From a virus (Duplodnaviria; Caudoviricetes): a stretch of 64,000 nucleotides of DNA. The first letter of the stretch is position 1. The number at the start of each line of letters is the position of its first letter. A program made the position numbers and the translations under genes. The stretch spans positions 55,435 through 119,434 of IMG/VR virus record IMGVR_UViG_3300010346_001007; one strand, 5' to 3'. The notes under the pieces were generated by a model. That model was not told the DNA's origin, ran no database searches, and was given only the letters and a program-made list of their open reading frames with translations. Shown piece by piece: positions 5,290 through 55,567 of the stretch.

Positions 5290-6237
5290 ATGAAAAAAAT
5301 ATATGTTTCAATAATTGTTGCGGGATTGACAGCTTTATTAACAAGTTGTGCTATTTTTACAACAAAAGGGAAAGCCTCTATAGCCGAAGAAAAAGGCCGA
5401 ATTAAAATTGTTGATTTAGAAGCTGCTCAATCAGAAAATGTAGCTAATAAGTTAGATGAAGTGGCTGGATGGGCATATGGTACGGATTATGCACTTAGTA
5501 AAGTAAATGAACCTTCTCAAGAAGTTATAGTTGCTAAAGATATAAATAGACGAGTTATTTCTCTTTCTGGAAGTCCTACTATTGAAAAAATGAAGGAAAT
5601 GCAAGAAATGATTGATAAATTGACTTCCGATTTAGAATTGGAAAAGGAAATGGGGAAGAAAAAATTGGCCTCAAAAGATAAAGAAATACTACAATTGCAG
5701 AATGAAAGTAAAGCAATATCAAAGGCTAAAGAAGTTGAAATAAAAAAATATATGGATAAAGCGGCTGCCGCCGCTGCCGCCGCAGATGCATATAAATTCC
5801 AATTGAAAGAATATGAGGGTTGGTTTGGATTAAAAGCAGTAGTTAAAGGCTTATGGCAATTTATTCGTACATCAATGTGGTTTTTATTAGGAGGAAGTAT
5901 TTTATTCTTTATTTTAAGAATGGCCGCATTTTCTAGTCCAATTGCAGCATCTATATTTAGTATATTTACTACTATAGCGGGCTGGATAATTAATATTATA
6001 CAATTTATTGTTCCAAAAGCAGTTGAAGCAACGGGGTATATTACTAATAAGGCATTTAATGTTTATAAAAGTGCCTTGTGGAAAGTTGTTGATGGAATTC
6101 AAATTATAAGATATAAAGCCGAAGAAACAGGAAAAACTCCAGATATTGAAGAAGCCATTGAAGAAATTAGTAAAACAATGAGTCCAGAAGAGAAAGAAAT
6201 TATTAATAATATAAAAAAGACATTAAATTGGAAATAG
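5290..6237 (+). CDS. Lipoprotein with coiled-coil body and C-proximal transmembrane segments (spanin-like candidate)
   Basis: MKK + hydrophobic stretch + LTSC lipobox; long helical region; hydrophobic segments WFLLGGSILFFIL and IAASIFSIFTTIAGWII. Confidence 0.55.
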   Translation: MKKIYVSIIVAGLTALLTSCAIFTTKGKASIAEEKGRIKIVDLEAAQSENVANKLDEVAGWAYGTDYALSKVNEPSQEVIVAKDINRRVISLSGSPTIEKMKEMQEMIDKLTSDLELEKEMGKKKLASKDKEILQLQNESKAISKAKEVEIKKYMDKAAAAAAAADAYKFQLKEYEGWFGLKAVVKGLWQFIRTSMWFLLGGSILFFILRMAAFSSPIAASIFSIFTTIAGWIINIIQFIVPKAVEATGYITNKAFNVYKSALWKVVDGIQIIRYKAEETGKTPDIEEAIEEISKTMSPEEKEIINNIKKTLNWK

Positions 6238-6269
6238 TCAATACTATTTATATTTAATATTAAAGCATT

Positions 6270-6953
6270 ATGAAAATTACAAAAAATCAACTAAAACGGG
6301 CAATTAAACAAATAGTAAGAGAAACTATTGAAGAGCGGCATGAGAAAAAGCAAACTCTTTTCAAAAAACATTTAACTGAGGCCGGATTAACTAGCGAAAC
6401 TGAAAATCAAACTCAAGGTTATAATGAGAATGAAGAGATCATGCTTATTAAAGTAATGAAATTAATTGCCGATAAATTGTTAGCCATGCACGGAAATCAA
6501 GCTACCCCAACAATTGGAATGGCAACGGCAGAATATCCCGCTGACAACCAGGAGGATAACCAATCTGATATGGAAATAGAAGCCGAACCGGAAGATGGCG
6601 ATGATGGAAATGAGGGAGAAGAAATTCCTACAGATAATGACAATGTAGAAGAAATTCCATTGGGTGATGAGGAGCCAGAAAATAATGTCGATGGAGATGA
6701 AGAAAATGAAGTTCCAGCCGATAATGAAACGCCGGAAGATAAAGAAGAAGACGAAGAAAATTTAGAAGAAGCTTCATATAAAAAAATTGCCAAGCGTGCA
6801 TATGAAACTTCGAAAGATATGAAAGCTCGTACAATACAATATGATCCCGAAGTTACTGAAAACTTTAAAGTTCAAACTCGGTCTTATCGTACTTCAGATG
6901 ATAATGCTAGTGATCCTAATAAAGTAAGGGACCCCGAAATTCCACAAGTATAA
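6270..6953 (+). CDS. Acidic putative head-internal/scaffold-type protein
   Basis: MKITKNQLKRAIKQIVRE N-terminus, very acidic middle, L-x-E sites, TATTTAT upstream (6245). Confidence 0.5.
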   Translation: MKITKNQLKRAIKQIVRETIEERHEKKQTLFKKHLTEAGLTSETENQTQGYNENEEIMLIKVMKLIADKLLAMHGNQATPTIGMATAEYPADNQEDNQSDMEIEAEPEDGDDGNEGEEIPTDNDNVEEIPLGDEEPENNVDGDEENEVPADNETPEDKEEDEENLEEASYKKIAKRAYETSKDMKARTIQYDPEVTENFKVQTRSYRTSDDNASDPNKVRDPEIPQV

Positions 6954-16418: not shown

Positions 16419-17432
16419 CTAGCTCTCTTTATATTTTTCGTTAATAATTTTTCCACTCCAGAATTTTTCTAATACTTCACTTCTAAAGTTTTCTTTTGGT
16501 CTTACGACAATGCCTTCGGCGGGACCGCCCGTTGGATATTGTAATTCATTGGCTAAATTAACCAATTCATCAATATTATATCCAAATGCGTTTCCTTCAT
16601 TTACCAACGTAACCATTGGCAAGTCAAATTCATCGCAAAATTTAACCATTTGCTCGTAATCAAAATAAATACGTTCTGTAATATCAAAAATGTTGAAAAT
16701 ATGCAATTCCAAATCTTTTAATCCGAGGCGGTTTTGCTGTATTTGTGGCCCACAAACTTCACCTTGAATTGCTATACTCCGATTTGGAAAGGCTTTTCTT
16801 AGTATATTTTCTAAATCATATTTTCGGGCAATTCGCCAGAATCCGTTGGTATCACTAGGTTTTAGCCAAATTTTCCGGCTGCACACACCAAATTCTGAAC
16901 CATGTAGGAAGAAAGTTCCACTACACCCATCATCTTTACGAGTGATATAATATGGTCGTCCCCACATTTCTTCTAATGCTTTGGGATAAGACCGTAAATT
17001 ATCTTCATCTGTCATGATTATGAATCCAGGCAAAATTCCATAGGCCATTCCTGACAATTGGACTGGAAGGGGTTTTTCATATTTTCTAACGCCAATCCAT
17101 TTTGTGACATCAGTTCCTTCTGCGATAGGACCTTTTAAGTCATAATCAAAATTTGGAAGTATAGATAGCGGAAATACAATACCTGCCGATTCTTTTCCTC
17201 GCAATTTAATTGACCGGATTCGAAAATTTTTGTTTCTCAAAAATTCAAATTCGGGCCGTTCAGGTAATACGGCATCGATAGCAATATATACAACCAAGTC
17301 ATTTTCCTTAAACTCTCCCCGCTTGGTAATAACTTGCCAACCTAAAACTTTTGCCACATCCAGTGAATCGGCATTAGAATGGGGTTGCACGTCATATATT
17401 CGTTGAATTGTTGCTAAATTTTCGTCATTCAT
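16419..17432 (-). CDS. ATP-dependent RNA ligase, DRB0094 family
   Basis: LATIQRI..V.PHSNAD.L N-domain; KDDG motif I, QGE, F.IFD, EGIV and K.IN. Confidence 0.9.
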   Translation of the reverse strand: MNDENLATIQRIYDVQPHSNADSLDVAKVLGWQVITKRGEFKENDLVVYIAIDAVLPERPEFEFLRNKNFRIRSIKLRGKESAGIVFPLSILPNFDYDLKGPIAEGTDVTKWIGVRKYEKPLPVQLSGMAYGILPGFIIMTDEDNLRSYPKALEEMWGRPYYITRKDDGCSGTFFLHGSEFGVCSRKIWLKPSDTNGFWRIARKYDLENILRKAFPNRSIAIQGEVCGPQIQQNRLGLKDLELHIFNIFDITERIYFDYEQMVKFCDEFDLPMVTLVNEGNAFGYNIDELVNLANELQYPTGGPAEGIVVRPKENFRSEVLEKFWSGKIINEKYKES

Positions 17433-22858: not shown

Positions 22859-23398
22859 TTAATTTCTTCCTTCGGCACCACAAATTTGACAAGTATATTT
22901 CATTTTGGTAATATATTCAGTTAGCTTTACATTAGTGTCTATACCTTTATCCCATTGATGAATACATTGGTTTTGGAGTTTTTGTATTTTTCTTTGTATT
23001 TCCTTTACTTTCTTTTCTAAGGGATGAATCATATCTTGAATTTTTTTATTTATTTTAAAAATTTCCATATCTAATGTTTCAATGGAAGTTTTAATTTCGT
23101 CGGGGTTAAATTTAATTTTTTTAAGTTTAATTGTGCCATCATTATAAAAATATGTTATATTACTAGACCAACCAATATCACGAATAGTGTTATGTTTAAT
23201 TTCGGCCCACACCCGACCCTTTTCCGAATCAAATCCGATATAAGTAATTCGCCCAATGACTTCTTTTTTATAATTTCTATCATACCATGAAACAACATCT
23301 CCAATTTTAAATGGAAAATTGTTTATTGCGTCTTCTTCAATTTTTTTTAATTCAGCTTTTAATTTTTTATAATTAGGAACTTCGTATTTTTTATTCAT
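22859..23398 (-). CDS. Hypothetical protein with SH3-like region, coiled coil and C-terminal zinc knuckle
   Basis: FKIGDVV.W; C.H.W...C.ICG. Confidence 0.55.
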   Translation of the reverse strand: MNKKYEVPNYKKLKAELKKIEEDAINNFPFKIGDVVSWYDRNYKKEVIGRITYIGFDSEKGRVWAEIKHNTIRDIGWSSNITYFYNDGTIKLKKIKFNPDEIKTSIETLDMEIFKINKKIQDMIHPLEKKVKEIQRKIQKLQNQCIHQWDKGIDTNVKLTEYITKMKYTCQICGAEGRN

Positions 23399-23399
23399 A

Positions 23400-24659
23400 T
23401 TATTTACATTCAATTAAGTGAGTTATTTTAACCTGGCTATTTCGATAAACAACCAATTCATCGTGATATAAACTATATCCCTTTTTGGCCCAAATAGAAT
23501 CATATCCCGAATGGTTTTTTGTGCCAGAATGTACAGTTTTAATTTTTCCCATTGCAAATTTACAGATAAACAACCAACCCGATTCTCCTACACCACCCTG
23601 TCCCCATCGGCCAAAAGTATAACCTAAAGATTTAGAAGAATTGATGGCCCCATAAATACCATTGCCAAACATGCTCCCGGCAATAGAAGCGGTACTCGGA
23701 GGACGTATTTTCAATCCCGACTTCAATATACTTAAACAATTAGCCTGAGAAGTACCATGAAATACTTCAACGATGGGAGTTAAAGTTGATTCAAAGGCGG
23801 CGGTCATTTCATGGATATTTACTTGATAAATTTCCCGGATTTTAACCTTATCATATCCATGCATTTTCCTTTTACTGGATGTAAAGAATTTTTCAAGCCG
23901 CCTTCTTTCTGAATCATCGGTCAAAATATCCAAATCTACCTTAAAGATTTTTTCTTGGGGTGAATTTGATTTATTTGAAGAATCTGATTTTGTAAGGGCC
24001 ATATAAGACGATTCTAGTGCATCCAACAAATCATTTTGTTTTTGCAGAGATAATTCTCCTGGAATAAGCGTTTCACAATCGAATTTTCTCATTCCTATAT
24101 TTTGAGGAATAAGTCGCAAATATTGATTTAACAAATCATCCGCTTCTTTGTTATAGTTTTGGGCTCGAACATGAACAGAAAGCTTGGCTAATAGATTTCG
24201 AGCTTCTTCGATACCTTCCATCGTTACAATGCCCATGGGAGTCGAAAATAATCCTGTTTTCGAACTGTATGTAATTTGCGTGTCCTGAGTAATACGATGG
24301 ATATTAGATTTTACAAGCTGATCAATCAATCGTTCTAATTTGGGGGATGATGATTTAACGAGTTGAGTTCGAGCAATAGAATGTAAATCTTTATTTTTAA
24401 CCGACGTTCCTGCGGAGACTTCTTTATTACCGTTTCCAATGGTTTTTAAATAGGTATATCCTTTTTTTAATTTTTCTTGAATTTTTTTATCGAAATATTT
24501 TTCACCCCGATTCCATTGGCCCGAATCTCCCTTATATCCCACCCGCCCCCAGGTGGCTTTAACGGTTCCATCATCGAACAATTGGCCCGTCCACCACTTG
24601 TTTGAATTAACTTTGGCTTCGGCTTTAATTAATTTGACTTCACGAATTAGCGTTGACAT
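23400..24659 (-). CDS. WGR-domain poly(ADP-ribose) polymerase-like protein
   Basis: SNKWW...TWGRVG (WGR); PARP-regulatory-like YLRLIPQ; catalytic FHGT, GSMFGNGIYGA..SSKS.GY and DELVVY...Q..ITHLIE (H-Y-E triad). Confidence 0.9.
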   Translation of the reverse strand: MSTLIREVKLIKAEAKVNSNKWWTGQLFDDGTVKATWGRVGYKGDSGQWNRGEKYFDKKIQEKLKKGYTYLKTIGNGNKEVSAGTSVKNKDLHSIARTQLVKSSSPKLERLIDQLVKSNIHRITQDTQITYSSKTGLFSTPMGIVTMEGIEEARNLLAKLSVHVRAQNYNKEADDLLNQYLRLIPQNIGMRKFDCETLIPGELSLQKQNDLLDALESSYMALTKSDSSNKSNSPQEKIFKVDLDILTDDSERRRLEKFFTSSKRKMHGYDKVKIREIYQVNIHEMTAAFESTLTPIVEVFHGTSQANCLSILKSGLKIRPPSTASIAGSMFGNGIYGAINSSKSLGYTFGRWGQGGVGESGWLFICKFAMGKIKTVHSGTKNHSGYDSIWAKKGYSLYHDELVVYRNSQVKITHLIECK

Positions 24660-24711
24660 AACTTTGAGAAAATTCAAGGTTTTTGAATTGTCTAATTCTC
24701 ATATTTCCCTC

Positions 24712-24740
24712 ATTATACTGATTTTTTCGGGACAAGTCAA
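24712..24740 (-). promoter_or_regulatory. Sigma70-like promoter TTGACT-N17-TATAAT for the PARP operon
   Basis: attata at 24712 and agtcaa at 24735 on the plus strand. Confidence 0.7.
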
Positions 24741-25042
24741 CAACTTTTTTAGAATTCAAAGAGAATCTGAAATGGAACGTACTTGGCTATTTTTTGGTTT
24801 TAACCGAAGTAAAAATAGCTGCATTGTAAGATTTCTTTTTGAACGGGGAGAATCGTTTAAATAATAATGAAAAAATCGTCCTTTACCAACTTGTTGTCCA
24901 ACTGGGTCCAATTAAAGATATGGGTGAGATTGGTCTGTATAATATTTTTGCAGATAATAATAACAGTTTTTATTAGGTCGTATAGGTATTCCATGCTTTC
25001 GGCAAGGTCGCATTAAAGTTTTTGTGCGTTTAATCTTAAAGG

Positions 25043-25264
25043 GGGCAGATGGTTCCAATTACTTATATTATATATAATATTCGAAGAGATTTAAGGATTA
25101 ATTTTTTATCGTTAAACTTTGAATATTTGAGATTTTAGTTTTGATCCCGCAGGTTCGGGGTAATCTTTCTCTTTCTCTTTGGGAGTATCATCGTAAGACG
25201 ATAAATGCATATCATTAGATACAGAAAATATTATATAAAATATGTTCATCTTTCCCATCTGCCC
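25043..25264 (-). ncRNA. Candidate structured ncRNA downstream of the DIP1984-like gene
   Basis: Perfect 10-bp terminal inverted repeat gggcagatgg/ccatctgccc, internal hairpins, ~7-nt periodic YAA tract, no ORF. Confidence 0.5.
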
Positions 25265-25272
25265 AAAATATA

Positions 25273-25719
25273 TTAATCTTCTATAGTTGTACTGGCATTA
25301 TATATATCAATCGCATCTTGCAAACTATTAATATCCTGCTGTAATTCTAACATGAGTCGATCAGCCTCTTTTTGGTTAATAAAGCTATCCCACGTATAGG
25401 TTCGAGCGGGACTAGAAGTACCTGTATATACTACTTCTTCTCCTTCTTTTTTCGTTAATGAATTTATATATGCAATGCGAGACTTATATTCAGCCATTCG
25501 TTCAATCTTGGAATAAATTCCAATGTTTGCTTTAGCTATTTTCCCTTTAAGTTCGCCCAATTGACGGGATGTTTCGAGAATGCTTTCCCATATTCGCATA
25601 CGGTCAATTTCTGAAACCGAATCCGATCTTCGGGCATTTTCTCGTTGGAAAATACTTTGTAATCTGACCAGTTCACCGGCTAACCTATTTTTTTGTTTTA
25701 ATGCTTGTGCAAGTGTCAT
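25273..25719 (-). CDS. DIP1984/septicolysin-like coiled-coil protein
   Basis: MTLAQAL..KN.L...N......LK.KIAKAN...LQDAID.YNA.T.I pattern. Confidence 0.7.
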   Translation of the reverse strand: MTLAQALKQKNRLAGELVRLQSIFQRENARRSDSVSEIDRMRIWESILETSRQLGELKGKIAKANIGIYSKIERMAEYKSRIAYINSLTKKEGEEVVYTGTSSPARTYTWDSFINQKEADRLMLELQQDINSLQDAIDIYNASTTIED

Positions 25720-25818
25720 AATATTATTCTAGTTTAGAACTAATCTAACATATTTGACAAAAAATGTCAAGTCCTTTTGTATTTTCTCGGATATATTCAT
25801 ATTTATTTTATAGGAAAT

Positions 25819-26865
25819 ATGTCTAAAAAGAAACCGAGAATTATATTCATTTGTAAGCGAAGACCGGCCCAATATGGAGCATCTTATGGTCTTTTGAATT
25901 CCTGTCGTTTTTTGTGCAATGCCCTTATAAATATGGGTGCCGAAGCGAAAACGGTGGAAGTAATTGATAACAATTTTATTGACCGAGAAGTTCATTTATA
26001 TAAACCAACTCATGTATTCATTGAAGCATTGTGGGTTGTGCCAGAAAAATTTGAAGTGCTTATTCCATTACATTCCAAGGTGCAGTGGCATGTAAGATTA
26101 CATAGTAATACGCCGTTTATATCTAATGAAGGAATTGCTATTCCGTGGATTAAGAAATACATAGAATTAAGTAAAAAATATCCACAATTTCATGTATCTC
26201 CAAATTCATTCCGATTGGTTAATGATTTATGGCAATCATTACATTATAAATCAATATATTCGCCCAACATTTATCAACCCCATGTAACACCGTGGGAAGA
26301 TAAAGAAATTGAAGTTCCTTGTCAAAAGAAAAAGGAAACAAATGTTATAAATATTGGTTGTTTTGGAGCTATCAGGCCAATGAAAAATCTACTAATTCAA
26401 GCAATGGCTGCAATTGCATTTTCTGAGGAATTGGGTAAAACATTACATTTTCATGTTAATCAATCTCGGCAAGAAATGAGTGGGGAAAATACTTATAAAA
26501 ATTTGGTTTCTCTATTTGAAAATTCCAAACATAAACTGGTTAATCATGCATGGCTTTTGCATTCCGATTTTATACAAGTTATTAAACAAATGGATTTAGG
26601 AATGCAAGTAACATTTTCGGAAACATTTAATATAGTTTCCGCAGATTTTGCTACTTCTATGGTGCCAATTGTTGGTACATCTGAGATTGAATGGATGAAT
26701 TGGCTATATAAAGCTAAACCTACTGATTTAGATAATATTGTATCTCATTTATGGCTGGCATGGTTAGGTAGAAATTGGGGATTACATTATTTTAATTTAA
26801 CAGGATTAAAAAAATGGAATAAAAATGCTCGTCAAGTTTGGAAAAATTATCTAAAACTTATGTAA
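25819..26865 (+). CDS. GT-B (GT4-like) glycosyltransferase
   Basis: IGCFGAIRPMKN, MDLGMQVTFSETFNIV.AD...VP; TATTTAT at 25800. Confidence 0.75.
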   Translation: MSKKKPRIIFICKRRPAQYGASYGLLNSCRFLCNALINMGAEAKTVEVIDNNFIDREVHLYKPTHVFIEALWVVPEKFEVLIPLHSKVQWHVRLHSNTPFISNEGIAIPWIKKYIELSKKYPQFHVSPNSFRLVNDLWQSLHYKSIYSPNIYQPHVTPWEDKEIEVPCQKKKETNVINIGCFGAIRPMKNLLIQAMAAIAFSEELGKTLHFHVNQSRQEMSGENTYKNLVSLFENSKHKLVNHAWLLHSDFIQVIKQMDLGMQVTFSETFNIVSADFATSMVPIVGTSEIEWMNWLYKAKPTDLDNIVSHLWLAWLGRNWGLHYFNLTGLKKWNKNARQVWKNYLKLM

Positions 26866-27032: not shown

Positions 27033-27854
27033 TTACCAGACTTCATCTATATCTGTTTTATGATCTAATTCTTTATCGGGCAAAATTAATGTAGATAATT
27101 TAGATTGTAATTTCCCGCCTTCAATTCTTTCTTTGGCCATGTCAAAGTAAGTTTTACTTTTTTCTACGCCAATAAATCCCCGGCCCAATCGAACTGCTAC
27201 GTCTCCGGTTGTTCCCGAACCCATGAAGGGGTCACAAATTATATCATTTTTATATGAAAATAATTTGATACATCTTAATGGTAATTCAGGAGGAAACGCC
27301 GCAGGATGTTTACTTCGGGTTTCGGGATTCATTTCCCATAGATTTTTAACAAATCGCATGAAATCACGGCCATTGATGGTAGATTCCCCCCTTTCTTTTC
27401 TTCGCCAATTCCCTTTATAAAATACTAAAATACATTCGTTGGGGTCAATGACAAAAGGTGCCCGAGCAGACCGCCAACTCCCCCAACAAGTTTTGTTACT
27501 TCCCAATTTTTTCCAAATAATTGTACGATAATACTTAAATCCTTCTTGCTGAACAATACGTGTATAATCCGCAGAAATGGGATAATTTATATCATCTGCA
27601 CCTTTCTTTTTATTTAAATGGATGGGGGTAACGGAAAAAGGAATATTAATACAAAATCTTCCTTCTTCGGTCATATGATTATATAGTTTTTTAATCCATT
27701 TTCGGCTCCACTCTAGGTATTCTAAATAGGGCATTGTATCATCATGTTTATCATATTCAACGCCAACATTATATGGGGGAGAGGTAATTACCAAATTAAT
27801 TGGAACATCGGTTAAATCAGCATGTAATATATCATCATTGATAAGTTTAAGCAT
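27033..27854 (-). CDS. DNA methyltransferase, N4C/N6A beta class
   Basis: TSPPYN, HPAAFP and DPFMGSGTT. Confidence 0.92.
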   Translation of the reverse strand: MLKLINDDILHADLTDVPINLVITSPPYNVGVEYDKHDDTMPYLEYLEWSRKWIKKLYNHMTEEGRFCINIPFSVTPIHLNKKKGADDINYPISADYTRIVQQEGFKYYRTIIWKKLGSNKTCWGSWRSARAPFVIDPNECILVFYKGNWRRKERGESTINGRDFMRFVKNLWEMNPETRSKHPAAFPPELPLRCIKLFSYKNDIICDPFMGSGTTGDVAVRLGRGFIGVEKSKTYFDMAKERIEGGKLQSKLSTLILPDKELDHKTDIDEVW

Positions 27855-27860
27855 AAAATA

Positions 27861-28733
27861 TTATATAGCCTCCGGAAATTTTTTAAGCAATAAATTTCCA
27901 TTCCTTACATATTCAGGATTAATGTCAGATGAATAAAAAGGGACTCCTATCCACTGGCAACAGAGACACTCACTCCCACTCCCAGCAAAGGGGATATATA
28001 CACTACCCAAAAATCGGTCATCTGATTTCATTAAGCATGATTTAAGTAATTTCATTGTTAATTTTTGAGGTTTTTGGGTAGGATGTTCTATAATTTCATG
28101 GTCAGAATGATTTCGTTTATTTCCTATAAATATATCATTACAAGTATGACAAAAGAAAATCCGTTCTCCTGCCCCAGCGCCTCCGGCGAGAGCAGGAACT
28201 TTGATTACATCTCTCCCTTTAGCTCCCAATTCGTTTGCTGTATAAATGGTATCAGTATTATTTTTAGACAATCTTCCCTTTGTGCCTTTACGAATTTTTC
28301 CTGCCGAATTTTTCAAGAAAGTTTCGGTATAAGGTTCTCTTACTTCATCTTCATTAAAAATTCTCTTTTTAGAATCTTTCCAAAATACAATGATGGATTC
28401 ATGACTGCGCTGCCAAAAATTTGATCCGGCAGTATTTTTATTTGTATAATGCCAAATTAACCATCGGTGGGGAAGGGATAATTTCACCGAAAGATGGGCT
28501 AAAATTTCACTGAATCCATAAATAAATCCAGTTCCAGTTGGTGTTAGAATTCTTTCACATTCTTTAATCCATTCTTCACACCATTTAATATAATCTCCTA
28601 ATTTTTGATTATCAGTTGAAATTCCAAAATCTTTTCCTATATTATATGGAGGGTCTGCAATTATGCATTGCATGGACGTATCGGGCAGAGTTTTGGCATA
28701 TTCTATTATGTCACGTTCTACAATAGTACTCAT
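27861..28733 (-). CDS. DNA adenine methyltransferase, beta class, with CxxC...H..H insert
   Basis: ADPPYN, HPTQKP and PFAGSGS. Confidence 0.9.
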   Translation of the reverse strand: MSTIVERDIIEYAKTLPDTSMQCIIADPPYNIGKDFGISTDNQKLGDYIKWCEEWIKECERILTPTGTGFIYGFSEILAHLSVKLSLPHRWLIWHYTNKNTAGSNFWQRSHESIIVFWKDSKKRIFNEDEVREPYTETFLKNSAGKIRKGTKGRLSKNNTDTIYTANELGAKGRDVIKVPALAGGAGAGERIFFCHTCNDIFIGNKRNHSDHEIIEHPTQKPQKLTMKLLKSCLMKSDDRFLGSVYIPFAGSGSECLCCQWIGVPFYSSDINPEYVRNGNLLLKKFPEAI

Positions 28734-29190: not shown

Positions 29191-30723
29191 ATGAAAATAT
29201 TAAAGCGCAAAACAAAGAAATCAGTTAATCCTGTTTTGACTGCGCTTCCTCAAAATCCTCTAGCTTCGGCAATGATGGAAAACTCTAATGAGGCATTTAC
29301 AGAAAATCTAGCTCTAACTAATAAATCTACGCTAAATTATGTACTAGATTGGTTTGGCTGCGGGGGTGCATTGCGACAACGAGCATCTTCGGATGCAACA
29401 AAAATATTTTTGAAGGCGTTTGCGCAAGATGCGCTCATGGCAACTAAAATCTTGTTTTATTTTCGAGATGTTCGTGGGGGTCAGGGAGAACGAGCTACAT
29501 TTCGTAATATTATAAAATATCTTGCCGTATATCATCCGGAAGTTGTCAGTAAAAATATGGAAAACATTCCGTTTTATGGGCGGTATGATGATCTATATGC
29601 TTTAGAAGGAACTCCCTTAGAAAAAGAAATGTTTCAATTTATTGCTCGCCAATTGAAACAAGACCTTCGTAATATGAAGAAGGGCGAGCCGGTATCATTG
29701 TTGGGCAAATGGTTAAAATCGGAAAATACTAGCTCTCCGGAATCTTGCCGTTTAGCAAAATTAACAAGAGAAGCCCTAGAATTATCATCTAAACGGTATC
29801 GAAAGGTTCTATCATCTTTGCGTAAGCATATTGATGTAATTGAACGAAAAATGTGCGGAAAAGAATGGAATGAAATTAATTTTGAAAATGTTCCCTCAAA
29901 AGCCAGTTTAATTTATCGTAGTGCTTTTGATCGCCATGCGCACAAAAAATATAAAGAATATTTGAAAAAGGTAGAACAAGGAAGTGCTAAAATCAATGCG
30001 GGAGCAGTATATCCCTATGAGATTTTTAGAAGCTTGATTCGTAATTCCGTATCCAAGGAAGTAATTAAAGCCGCCGATTTACAGTGGGCCAATATGCCGA
30101 ATTGGATGGGAGAAAACGAACATCGAGGATTGGTAATTGCCGACGTATCGGGTTCTATGCTTTCAGGTGTGCCGAATATACTTGTAGCCGTTTCTTTAGC
30201 TCTTTACTTTGCGGAACGAAATGTGGGTCCGTTTAAGGATATGTGGTTGAATTTTTCATCGAGACCGACTTTTCAACGATTTGTTGGAAATAATCTCCGT
30301 GAAAAGTACCTAAATATGGATAAAGATAATTGGGGAGGTTCAACTAATTTACAAGCCGCATTTAACCTTATTTTAAATTCCGCAGTTAAAAATAAAGTTA
30401 AAGAAAAAGATATGCCGGAAGTTTTATATATAATTTCTGACATGGAATTTAATCAAGCTTGCACTGGAAATGATAAGACTAATTTCCGAGTCATGAAAGA
30501 AAAATATAAAGAGGCCGGATATAAATTGCCTCGGGTTGTATGGTGGAATGTTGCCAGTCAAAATGACAATTTCCCAATCCGAGCAGATGACAATAACACA
30601 GCTTTAGTTTCGGGATGTTCTCCGAGCATTTTGAAGCAACTGCTATCGAGTAAGAATTTTACCCCGTTGGGTATAATGCAAGAAACAATTAATTCGCCTC
30701 GGTATGACCGGGTTGTTATTTAA
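29191..30723 (+). CDS. DUF2828-type helical + vWA protein (Ro60/TROVE-like)
   Basis: TEN.A....ST...LD.F, RDVRGGQGER, YGRYDDL, KW.KSE and VPSKA; MIDAS DVSGSM, STNL, ISDMEF. Confidence 0.85.
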   Translation: MKILKRKTKKSVNPVLTALPQNPLASAMMENSNEAFTENLALTNKSTLNYVLDWFGCGGALRQRASSDATKIFLKAFAQDALMATKILFYFRDVRGGQGERATFRNIIKYLAVYHPEVVSKNMENIPFYGRYDDLYALEGTPLEKEMFQFIARQLKQDLRNMKKGEPVSLLGKWLKSENTSSPESCRLAKLTREALELSSKRYRKVLSSLRKHIDVIERKMCGKEWNEINFENVPSKASLIYRSAFDRHAHKKYKEYLKKVEQGSAKINAGAVYPYEIFRSLIRNSVSKEVIKAADLQWANMPNWMGENEHRGLVIADVSGSMLSGVPNILVAVSLALYFAERNVGPFKDMWLNFSSRPTFQRFVGNNLREKYLNMDKDNWGGSTNLQAAFNLILNSAVKNKVKEKDMPEVLYIISDMEFNQACTGNDKTNFRVMKEKYKEAGYKLPRVVWWNVASQNDNFPIRADDNNTALVSGCSPSILKQLLSSKNFTPLGIMQETINSPRYDRVVI

Positions 30724-35195: not shown

Positions 35196-35678
35196 ATGAA
35201 TTTCGATCATTGTAATAAAACATACGAGTATATAAAGACCAAATTATTTCCGCATGTTACAATACGTGCGAACTTTATAAAGTTTGAAGATTATTTAACC
35301 GCTTTTTCGGAACTTCCTTCGGGGAAATGGTTGCGAAATGAAAAATCGGTAATTTTGATGCGCACTCATTTTTTAATGAATACGGAAGAATTTGCAAAAG
35401 ATTATGCTAAATATTGTGTAAGTTTTTATTTTATTGGCGACGACCCCACTAAAATAACATATCGTATAATTTATCAAGTTTCTCCCGAATTACATTTAGA
35501 AGTGTTTGTATTTACTTGGATGGAGAAAGAAACAGTATTCTCTTTTGCGATTGCCAATGTTGTTATGAAATACAGTAATAAATTTATCGATTTTTTGAAA
35601 ACATTGGAAAAATACAAGCTTACAGGAAATACTTCCGATGCATCTCCACTTCCCGGATTTTTACAACAACCGAAATGA
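35196..35678 (+). CDS. Hypothetical protein
   Basis: 160-aa ORF after a promoter. Confidence 0.6.
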   Translation: MNFDHCNKTYEYIKTKLFPHVTIRANFIKFEDYLTAFSELPSGKWLRNEKSVILMRTHFLMNTEEFAKDYAKYCVSFYFIGDDPTKITYRIIYQVSPELHLEVFVFTWMEKETVFSFAIANVVMKYSNKFIDFLKTLEKYKLTGNTSDASPLPGFLQQPK

Positions 35679-54943: not shown

Positions 54944-55567
54944 ATGGAAATTACATTTTCTATTGTTGGAACAAGCATACATCCATCTCTTAATTTGACG
55001 GCATTTAAGGCTGCATATTTTGTAGCCGAAGAATTGTTAAAAAAATTCGAACAGTGCAATTACCCTATAACCCATCTTGTTTCTGGTGGGAGAGCGTTTG
55101 CTGAACACGTTGCGGTACAACTATTCTTAGATAAAAAAGTACCCCATTTACGAATATTTACTTCTTCTGATTATTGGTCAAATAAATTTGGCTTAAAATT
55201 TAATTATGGGGACAATCGGAAAAATTTTTCGGAAATGGAAAAACAACATCATTATAAATTTGATAGACTTACAGGAATTGATTCTTTAAATGCAATTAAT
55301 ATGGCTCGGCAAAGGGGGGCAGAAATAAAATATGTTTCCCGAGGGTTTCATGCTTGCAATGCATTAATAGCTAAATCTGATTTTTTGTTGGCCATTACTT
55401 ATGGAGAAAAAGATATTGTCAAGGATGTAGTAGCCGAACATATTGTTCGTAGATATTTAGAAAGAGTAAGAAAGGAAAATATTTTTGATAAATCATATCA
55501 TTATAATTTAAATGATGGAAAAGTATATGTTGGATGTAATATTCCACCTTTGATAAATAAGAAATAA
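54944..55567 (+). CDS. SLOG/DprA-like Rossmannoid protein
   Basis: I.IVGT, HLVSGG.A.A.H.AV and N.LIA..D.LLA. Confidence 0.5.
   Translation: MEITFSIVGTSIHPSLNLTAFKAAYFVAEELLKKFEQCNYPITHLVSGGRAFAEHVAVQLFLDKKVPHLRIFTSSDYWSNKFGLKFNYGDNRKNFSEMEKQHHYKFDRLTGIDSLNAINMARQRGAEIKYVSRGFHACNALIAKSDFLLAITYGEKDIVKDVVAEHIVRRYLERVRKENIFDKSYHYNLNDGKVYVGCNIPPLINKK

Follow-up and report, generated by a model that had tools for sequence, protein, structure and literature searches.

A structured, probably circular RNA coupled to a DIP1984-like protein gene in a jumbo phage, related phages, and bacteria

What is encoded by the roughly 220 nucleotides (nt) that follow the c0 gene of a virus of the Caudoviricetes, and does this stretch, closed at both ends by an inverted repeat, belong to the gene in front of it? 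The locus lies in a 64-kb window (64,000 nt, positions 55,435 to 119,434 of IMG/VR virus record IMGVR_UViG_3300010346_001007), which is the final part of a 119-kb record. The CheckV completeness of this record is 34%, and its source is therefore a jumbo phage, which agrees with PHROG and Pfam matches to RIIA, a ligase, a helicase, and two N6/N4 DNA methylases. The c0 gene, an open reading frame (ORF) on the minus strand (25273-25719; all coordinates are those of the window), encodes a helical protein of 148 aa. A preliminary description of the locus, made from the letters alone, proposed that the stretch behind c0 is a noncoding RNA (ncRNA) with a periodic tract bound repeat by repeat by an oligomer of the c0 protein, the pair serving as an antitoxin-like, decoy, or anti-defence system; a PADLOC search for known defence systems gave no hit to the pair. 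From homologous loci, covariance models, RNA libraries, and structure predictions, we are almost certain that a structured, expressed RNA coupled to the c0 gene is real.

The inverted repeat is present as it was described, with GGGCAGATGG at 25264-25255 on the minus strand, 8 nt past the c0 stop codon, and a perfectly complementary decamer at 25052-25043. No other exact copies occur in the window; when one mismatch is allowed, 5 decamer matches are found versus 1.6 expected, and the decamer by itself is therefore weak evidence. The minus-strand fold of the element gave a z of -4.7 versus shuffles, and R1, the covariance model described below, matches the window at 25039-25267 (minus strand) with 133.5 bits and an E value of 4e-26. 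The element is single copy in the source record. A weak second R1 match on the plus strand (35318-35489; 15.4 bits, E value of 0.41) is probably due to chance.

Along the RNA, whose parts all lie on the minus strand, the order is P1, internal loops (GGAA versus GGAA and GAAA versus AGUA) around a 2-bp helix, P2, one or two variable hairpins, the AAAGAGAAAGAU box, P4, the heptad tract, AAAACUCUUUUG, and then the way back via P2 and P1. P1 is built from the 5' arm GGGCAGAUGG (25255-25264) and the 3' arm CCAUCUGCCC (25043-25052), both defined by the inverted repeat and by covariation. According to the alignments, the P1-P2 internal loops have the consensus GGAAGUGAAA on the 5' side, with a covarying 2-bp helix (25244-25254), and AGUAnnGGAAG on the 3' side (25053-25064); judged by its letters, the AGUA opposite GAA presumably resembles a loop E or bulged-G motif. 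Just inside P1 lie the two P2 arms (5' arm 25243-25227, AT-rich here; 3' arm 25081-25065), which are 17 nt long and 94% complementary and were taken from the inverted repeat and the minimum free energy (MFE) fold. The small hairpins and the gagaaa repeat of the preliminary description are also found. In the P3 region (25190-25222), MFE folds give two small variable hairpins, P3a (25222-25209) and P3b (atcgt/acgat, 25202-25190), and across the window and 20 relatives this region forms one or two hairpins of unrelated sequence. The gagaaa repeat (25180-25163) is the purine box AAAGAGAAAGAU, near-invariant in the alignment columns and duplicated in this phage, and the cccg/cggg hairpin (25159-25146) is P4, a covarying GC hairpin just ahead of the tract. 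The heptad tract itself (25089-25145), defined by its unit positions and conserved AA columns and predicted to be single-stranded, holds the eight YAA units that had been counted at about 7-nt spacing; they stand at RNA positions 122, 128, 136, 144, 151, 157, 165, and 172, with spacings of 6 to 8 nt and a mean of 7.1. A CUCUU(C) box (25083-25088), conserved as AAAACUCUUUUG in the group A loci, closes the tract.

If the stretch is a functional RNA, homologs of c0 should carry it as well, and the alignment of their 3' flanks had been proposed as the check. Loci were fetched around c0 homologs (6 viral and 80 metagenome), and both the conserved closing stem and the 7-nt periodicity were found. 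A stem of 11 to 20 bp closes 135 to 250 nt right behind the stop codon in nearly all fetched loci; its sequence differs in each lineage, yet the pairing persists. R1 was built from 13 seeds, with helices set by anti-diagonal counts and then tested with the model, while RNAalifold on a plain MAFFT alignment recovered P1 alone. In an alignment of 30 group A sequences, which was fitted to R1 and hence favors the structure somewhat, 87.5% of the cells pair versus 65.4% in shuffles (reached by 0 of 500 shuffles), all 26 modelled base pairs show compensatory changes, and the covariation score is 0.664 versus 0.255 for shuffles and 0.10 to 0.18 for slid partners. P1 (13 bp, often with a 1-nt bulge) is 94.8% paired over the 30 sequences with compensatory changes in 13 of 13 pairs, P4 is 84.8% paired with such changes in 6 of 6 pairs, and the 2-bp helix between P1 and P2 is 96.7% paired, using AU, GC, GU, and UA pairs. 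The register of P2 varies among relatives, and 67% is paired in a fixed register. G-U pairs are frequent (11 of 30 sequences at one P1 pair, 17 of 20 at one pair of group B, the Opitutaceae) and fit the gene strand only, so the element acts as RNA. A further helix, P5 (AAAGAG/CUCUUU, the AAAGAGAAAGAU box with the CUCUU box), is pairable in 8 to 13 of the 13 sequences by anti-diagonal count, with both sides invariant and no covariation; in group B, the box equivalent to CUCUU pairs locally, with covariation. In the heptad tract, the AA of each unit is nearly invariant and the spacers are variable, and column information over the 30 relatives autocorrelates with r = 0.62 at lag 7 and 0.41 at lag 14. 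YAA-like units number 6 to 7 in group B and 5 to 8 in more distant homologs.

The RNA is also found in RNA libraries, the second check that had been suggested, where metatranscriptome contigs cover exactly the element. In 18 metatranscriptome runs from activated sludge and bioreactors, 0.17 to 0.27 of the sampled words of 24700-25800 were recovered, a share that corresponds roughly to the length of the RNA; contigs were mapped for 4 of the 18 (X1, X2, X7, and X15), and the other 14 (0.17 to 0.20 of the words) were not counted. The contigs of all four cover 25038-25268 and define an RNA of about 228 to 230 nt. In X7 (depth of 17) and X15 (depth of 7.7), the flanks stand at 0 and no further part of the stretch is covered, which is no proof of absent mRNA; X1 and X2 also hold low-depth mRNA pieces.

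Three of these runs, from three studies, contain a back-joint on the same strand. In X7 the joint runs from 25267 to 25038, and in X2 from 25267 through an additional G to 25041; in X15 the loose end after 25268 equals 25039-25049, pointing to a joint from 25268 to 25040. At 260 nt, the X7 contig exceeds 230 nt by a 30-nt overlap, the length that a circular path should have at k = 31. In the RNA sense the joint reads ...CCAUCUGCCCCC-U(3-6)-GGGCAGAUGG..., so that it falls at the open end of P1 and turns P1 into a hairpin with a U-rich cap. Joints of this kind, within one strand, cannot come from an inverted repeat, and the DNA carries the element only once. Thus, the head-to-tail junction by which circular RNAs are recognized in RNA data is present in contigs of three libraries, each from a different study. 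Most simply, this is read as a circle of 228 to 230 nt, and the RNA is probably covalently circular in cells.

The connection between RNA and gene can be followed far beyond this phage. As had been supposed for the adjacent gene, the RNA is tied to the DIP1984-like gene by 1:1 co-occurrence in phages and in whole bacterial genomes, at protein identities from 100% down to about 28%. R1 finds one copy per locus in 30 of 30 group A loci, on the gene strand and at a distance of 8 nt to about 1.1 kb behind the gene. In five phage genome records, among them a complete one of 369 kb, there is exactly one match per record, beside the c0 gene. A genome scan revealed c0-type genes in Opitutaceae chromosomes (Geminisphaera colitermitum TAV2, Nibricoccus, Lacunisphaera, and others) and, at 27 to 36% identity, in Bacteroidota, Planctomycetota, Victivallales, Fimbriimonadaceae, and Chlorobiota; the homologs at 28 to 36% identity, from five or more other phyla, likewise have the closing stem and a CAA tract behind the stop codon. 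With R2, a second model applied to whole Opitutaceae genomes, RNA copies equal gene copies, each RNA lying 20 to 24 nt downstream of its gene: among 101 genomes, the same 4 have both (six genes and six RNAs) and 97 have neither. Geminisphaera colitermitum TAV2 is a cultured strain with two copies of the gene-RNA pair.

Some loci depart from the simple arrangement. In L009, which lies on the same contig as L002, two c0-like genes stand in tandem (5476-5946 and 6001-6447), and the RNA follows the second copy only. Nine loci (L015, L021, L023, L032, L033, L035, L038, L043, and L008) have an extra ORF or 200 to 1100 nt between gene stop and RNA, the RNA being intact and on the same strand; the insertions (e.g., L033:6466-6879 on the plus strand and L023:6423-7331 on the minus strand) may be mobile. 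The Nibricoccus chromosome of L092/L093 carries two near-identical gene-RNA units 38.6 kb apart (2.39 and 2.43 Mb), with no long RtcB-like ORF after the RNA; the RtcB-like frame may be truncated there.

What, then, is the protein? Close homologs of c0 number about 300 in metagenomes, on contigs of up to 369 kb, and a profile search collected 1,998 clusters at 50% identity, nearly all of them stand-alone proteins of 141 to 170 aa. The c0 protein itself has no match in Pfam or PHROGs. Against NF038048 (the NCBIfam model DIP1984_fam) it aligns end to end (3-141 versus 2-144 of 149) with an E value of 0.14 and 12.3 bits; the same model matches 18 of 21 family members with a best E value of 1e-10, and DUF6847 (PF20935) matches 4 of the 21 with a best E value of 2.7e-4. 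All NF038048 matches, that of c0 included, stay under the curated cut-off of 70 bits. The c0 protein is a distant branch of DIP1984/DUF6847 and not a member by the curated rule. A PDB sequence search with the family profile returned coiled-coil noise alone. The AlphaFold2 model (predicted local distance difference test [pLDDT] of 93.5) shows four helices and a beta hairpin, and its top Foldseek match is 3kdq_A, an unannotated structure from C. diphtheriae (probability of 1.00, template modeling [TM] scores of 0.64/0.63, E value of 5e-3), followed by unrelated coiled coils with TM scores below 0.4; the model thus has the same fold as 3KDQ, the solved DIP1984 member. Invariant family residues are polar or basic and cluster at the N terminus (QALKQKNRL) and the C terminus (LQD..D..N). 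When four copies were predicted as a complex, the interaction prediction score from aligned errors (ipSAE) was 0.64 versus 0.41 for the best control; in the ipSAE calibration, made on two copies and not four, 20 of the 30 solved homo-pairs reached the mark, as did 1 of the 23 single chains. Contact agreement between the complex runs was at least 90%, with a partner pLDDT of 86 to 88. Judging from these models, the c0 protein probably oligomerizes.

A consensus scan located a promoter-like site upstream of c0 (TTGACA-17-TAGATT, 25742-25770, minus strand), and the same motif is equally placed in L001 and L002. This site likely starts the transcript of c0 plus RNA. Another promoter-like site inside the c0 3' end (25324-25297) was rejected as a product of the LQD and YN codons, its DNA not being conserved in relatives.

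The genes around the module suggest how the RNA might be closed. In Opitutaceae, the operon consists of a sigma-70-like factor, the gene, the RNA, and RtcB in a 510- to 566-aa form with an N-terminal extension, with a divergent LysR gene in some loci. RtcB stands directly behind the RNA in L053, L061, L073, L087, and L099 by Pfam or BLASTP, and ORFs of RtcB-like size occupy this place in L090, L095, and L101-L105. Arrays of roughly 9 to 15 tRNA genes lie 2.5 to 5 kb upstream in Opitutaceae loci; in L099:21-2547 (Geminisphaera colitermitum TAV2) and L092:157-2376 (a Nibricoccus metagenome-assembled genome), 15 and 9 Rfam tRNA matches, respectively, fall within about 2.5 kb. Together with the gene-RNA-RtcB group, these arrays may form a tRNA-backup and RNA-repair island. 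The phage records each carry an RNA ligase gene of the PF09414 type instead, directly behind the RNA in the complete phage G001 (L006:6933-7817) and 6 to 10 kb from it on the same strand in three other records, this one included. Here the gene is at 16419-17432 on the minus strand (PF09414 nucleotidyltransferase domain at 16485-16955, 80.6 bits), and on this domain match its product is a candidate for closing the RNA. That two unrelated ligase families occupy the same slot is the reason to think that RNA ligation belongs to the module, which is suggestive only.

The preliminary description placed the module upstream of a PARP operon. The WGR-PARP protein gene (23400-24677, minus strand; WGR-PARP_reg-PARP by PHROG and Pfam) is joined to the module by lineage synteny only, has its own promoter (24740-24712), and is replaced by other neighbors outside these phages, the PARP adjacency being confined to this phage lineage. 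A gene for a DUF2828/DUF7788 "RNA-binding" protein (phrog_850, TROVE-like by PHROG and Pfam; 29191-30723, plus strand) lies 4 kb from the RNA in 10 phage loci, and none was seen in the bacterial loci examined; this gene and that for PARP are syntenic with the module in 10 to 13 related phage loci. A small Cys-rich ORF follows the RNA in most phage relatives (CxxH/C ... CYYC) and looks decayed here (24857-25012, minus strand), where it reads MRPCRKHG...CYYY, with an in-frame TAA after ...HPYL and then the conserved GKGRF tail in frame. The divergent neighbor at 25828-26865 (plus strand) is GT-B glycosyltransferase-like, with over 4,000 homologs, some of which carry PF20706 (GT4-conflict); it adjoins two DNA methylases (27033-28733, minus strand), with which it likely makes up a DNA-modification or anti-restriction unit. 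This gene was considered as an RNA-processing enzyme and set aside, as its glycosyltransferase-like nature and its synteny probably place it in DNA modification. A 184-aa ORF (22859-23413, minus strand) overlaps the end of the PARP gene and has weak coiled-coil matches (PADLOC LmuB at an E value of 5e-5, SMC-like). The window contains one tRNA-Arg. The locus has no blastn match in 50,697 phage records, and the sole tblastn match of the c0 protein is to one uncultured 595-kb phage. Phage T5 yielded no match to NF038048 or to the family profile at E values up to 1.

How could these parts work together? We propose that a structured ncRNA of about 228 to 230 nt would share one transcript with the DIP1984-like gene and be excised from the 3' end of that transcript; its ends, held by P1, would then be joined head to tail, yielding a circle with a U-rich loop on top of P1. 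Closure would most likely be the work of RtcB in the bacterial operons and of the PF09414 ATP-dependent RNA ligase or a host ligase in phages. RNA and protein would make up a two-part module, probably a ribonucleoprotein, in which the self-associating protein would occupy the eight YAA units or the conserved internal loops. For this explanation as a whole, an excised and ligated circle in a module with the DIP1984-like protein, we see a reasonable balance of probability in its favor. On its separate parts, we lean toward the c0 protein binding the RNA; that an RtcB or Rnl-type ligase closes the RNA has about an even chance; and that binding proceeds via the heptads, unit by unit, may be entertained with somewhat more doubt than belief. 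The neighbors RtcB, tRNA arrays, phage RNA ligase, TROVE-like protein, and PARP suggest a way of coping with RNA damage in phage-host conflict, and a role in such a conflict over RNA damage or repair is put forward tentatively.

Several observations weigh against this explanation. The joints come from assembled contigs, in which the share of joined molecules, the strand, and the end chemistry are not readable; the number of U residues at the joint varies by run (3 plus a C, 5, and 6); and such joints could arise by template switching of reverse transcriptase (RT) if a linear RNA is abundant, or by ligation while the library is prepared. No nuclease that makes the ends was found, and no known ribozyme matches the element. 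RtcB was not found in five phage records (this one and four others), a negative that shows little, as four of the five are fragments and one is complete. The ligase gene lies kilobases away in most phages, and jumbo phages often carry RNA ligases in any case. In genomes other than those of Opitutaceae and these phages, the neighbors (type I methylase, glycosyltransferase, AAA ATPase, subtilase, and aldehyde dehydrogenase) are unrelated to one another and to RNA repair, and the constant unit is therefore gene plus RNA. Finally, the result of the complex prediction may partly be memory of the solved homolog 3KDQ.

Some of these points would be expected if the molecule were a stable linear RNA from the 3' end of the gene's mRNA, still with a protein partner, and the joints were RT or library-ligation artefacts helped by P1. 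We regard this as unlikely, while taking it seriously: the joints are seen in contigs only and with varying U counts, X1 shows the RNA without a joint, and the 3' end, a stem followed by a U run, looks like a terminator. However, the joint recurs in three libraries of three studies made by different preparations (random PCR, size fractionation, and other), one contig closes on itself with exactly the k-1 overlap, and two unrelated lineages have an RNA ligase gene behind the RNA. A different question is who binds the circle. The heptads might hold a third party (a host RNA-binding protein, a sequence-specific ribonuclease, or an anticodon nuclease) as a multivalent sponge or decoy, with the DIP1984-like protein only making or stabilizing the RNA, for example via the internal loops. 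The U-C-A-A units would resemble 7-nt loop sequences, tRNA arrays, RtcB, and RNA ligase nearby fit RNA-cleaving toxins, and, the tract aside, the RNA is most invariant in the internal loops and in the AAAGAGAAAGAU box; nothing, however, points to a third party, and the pair also occurs with unrelated neighbors in many phyla, which suggests that it is self-sufficient. We consider such a sponge rather improbable.

The position of the element between two genes, its terminator-like stem with U residues, and the start of the next small ORF 10 to 15 nt past P1 in many loci would also suit a cis-regulatory element, acting either on the gene itself, as a large terminator or attenuator, or on the gene downstream, as a leader. 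This is very unlikely, given that downstream genes differ wholly between lineages while the upstream gene is constant, that the RNA accumulates alone in RNA libraries, that about 220 nt of conserved architecture far exceed the needs of a terminator, and that an inserted ORF puts the RNA up to 1.1 kb from the gene in some loci. A type III toxin-antitoxin-like pair, with the repeat RNA neutralizing a toxic protein, is similarly improbable: a protein gene does stand beside a repeat-bearing RNA, and the distribution is patchy and accessory (4 of 101 genomes), but the order is reversed with the RNA after the gene, the repeats are of 7 nt and not pseudoknot units of 34 to 40 nt, and the protein has the helical DIP1984-like fold and not that of a ToxN/AbiQ-type RNase, with no match in PADLOC. 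Arrays of 7-bp repeats exist as protein-binding DNA sites, and together with the terminal inverted repeats they would speak for a DNA-level element, be it a miniature inverted-repeat transposable element (MITE), an iteron or heptad operator array, or an attachment site. This we hold to be extremely improbable, as there is one copy per genome here and one per gene copy elsewhere, orientation and place behind the gene are fixed, stems covary with G-U on one strand only, the arms differ between relatives with pairing kept, and the element is found alone in RNA libraries.

Does the excised and ligated RNA belong to a known kind? Rfam contained no family for the element, either at gathering score in the window and 13 loci or at E values up to 10 over 24600-25800 on both strands, the latter search giving no Y RNA and no ribozyme family (hammerhead, hairpin, twister, HDV-like, hatchet, or pistol); ARAGORN predicted no tmRNA or tRNA-like gene at the element. 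The element thus has no Y RNA or YrlA match in Rfam and does not classify as a self-cleaving ribozyme, a type III toxin-antitoxin locus, or a MITE. In the literature searched, there is nothing on such an RNA or on the function of DIP1984, DUF6847, or 3KDQ. A close parallel may be sought in Ro60 (Rsr), which occurs with the bacterial Y RNAs YrlA/YrlB in rsr-yrlBA-rtcBA operons (PMC4201824, PMC7790460). Both cases concern a small structured ncRNA with its ends paired in a long stem, beside the gene of its presumed partner, in an RtcB operon and also in phages, and this phage has a TROVE-like gene (DUF2828/DUF7788, phrog_850) at 4 kb from the RNA. In contrast to Y RNAs, the partner here is a 148-aa helical DIP1984-like protein and not a TROVE ring, the RNA is without a tRNA-like domain, includes a heptad tract, and is seen with its ends joined head to tail, and no TROVE gene stands alongside in the bacterial loci examined.

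The even spacing recalls other systems. TRAP binds the trp leader through 11 (G/U)AG triplets, and HutP binds hut mRNA through NAG triplets 7 nt apart in Bacillus. These likewise have evenly spaced conserved triplets with free spacers, read by an oligomer with one subunit per repeat, as the preliminary description proposed here; but they are cis-acting mRNA leaders bound by beta-rich rings, whereas here a separate, stable, and probably circular RNA is proposed to be bound by a helical protein. CsrB/RsmZ and CrcZ are protein-sponge small RNAs (sRNAs) with many short single-stranded motifs between hairpins and similarly display motif copies that hold several protein copies; their motifs are GGA or A-rich, and unlike the present RNA they are linear, without a ligase link, and not behind the gene of their partner. 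As for closed molecules, RtcB makes the archaeal and metazoan tRNA-intron circles (tricRNAs; PMC4536317), and DucS of Bacillus altitudinis is a linear/circular sRNA (PMC10504365). They share with the present RNA that small stable DNA-encoded circular ncRNAs have their ends brought together by a helix, and differ in that here there is no bulge-helix-bulge or splicing endonuclease, that there is a dedicated protein gene, and that the RNA occurs in phages and bacteria. Nor is the element an intron, because the upstream ORF ends before the RNA. ROOL (RF03087) and GOLLD (RF01998) are also uncharacterized, strongly structured phage or prophage ncRNAs, often near tRNA genes, but they are 500 to 800 nt long, lack a heptad tract, and have no gene of this protein family as a constant partner. 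We would raise, with less confidence than doubt, that the module represents a widespread, undescribed class of ribonucleoproteins, in which a DNA-encoded RNA cut from the 3' end of its partner's mRNA is circularized by repair ligases (RtcB or Rnl-type) and shows eight 7-nt units to a DIP1984-like oligomer. In bacteria and huge phages, such particles would take part in RNA-damage warfare, be it as decoys that resist nucleases, as sensors, or as scaffolds.

To our knowledge, no established kind of DNA-encoded circular ncRNA in bacteria or phages has a protein partner dedicated to it, and the natural substrates of RtcB in bacteria are, as far as we know, largely unknown. The RNA described here is a concrete candidate for such a substrate, located inside RtcB operons. 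If our explanation is true, it would give a first clue to the function of the DIP1984/DUF6847 family, which comprises about 2,000 clusters at 50% identity and has had a crystal structure since 2009, as the protein half of an RNA-protein module; meanwhile, in jumbo phages, where the module stands beside PARP, TROVE-like, and RNA ligase genes, it may belong to an arms race between phage and host at the RNA level.

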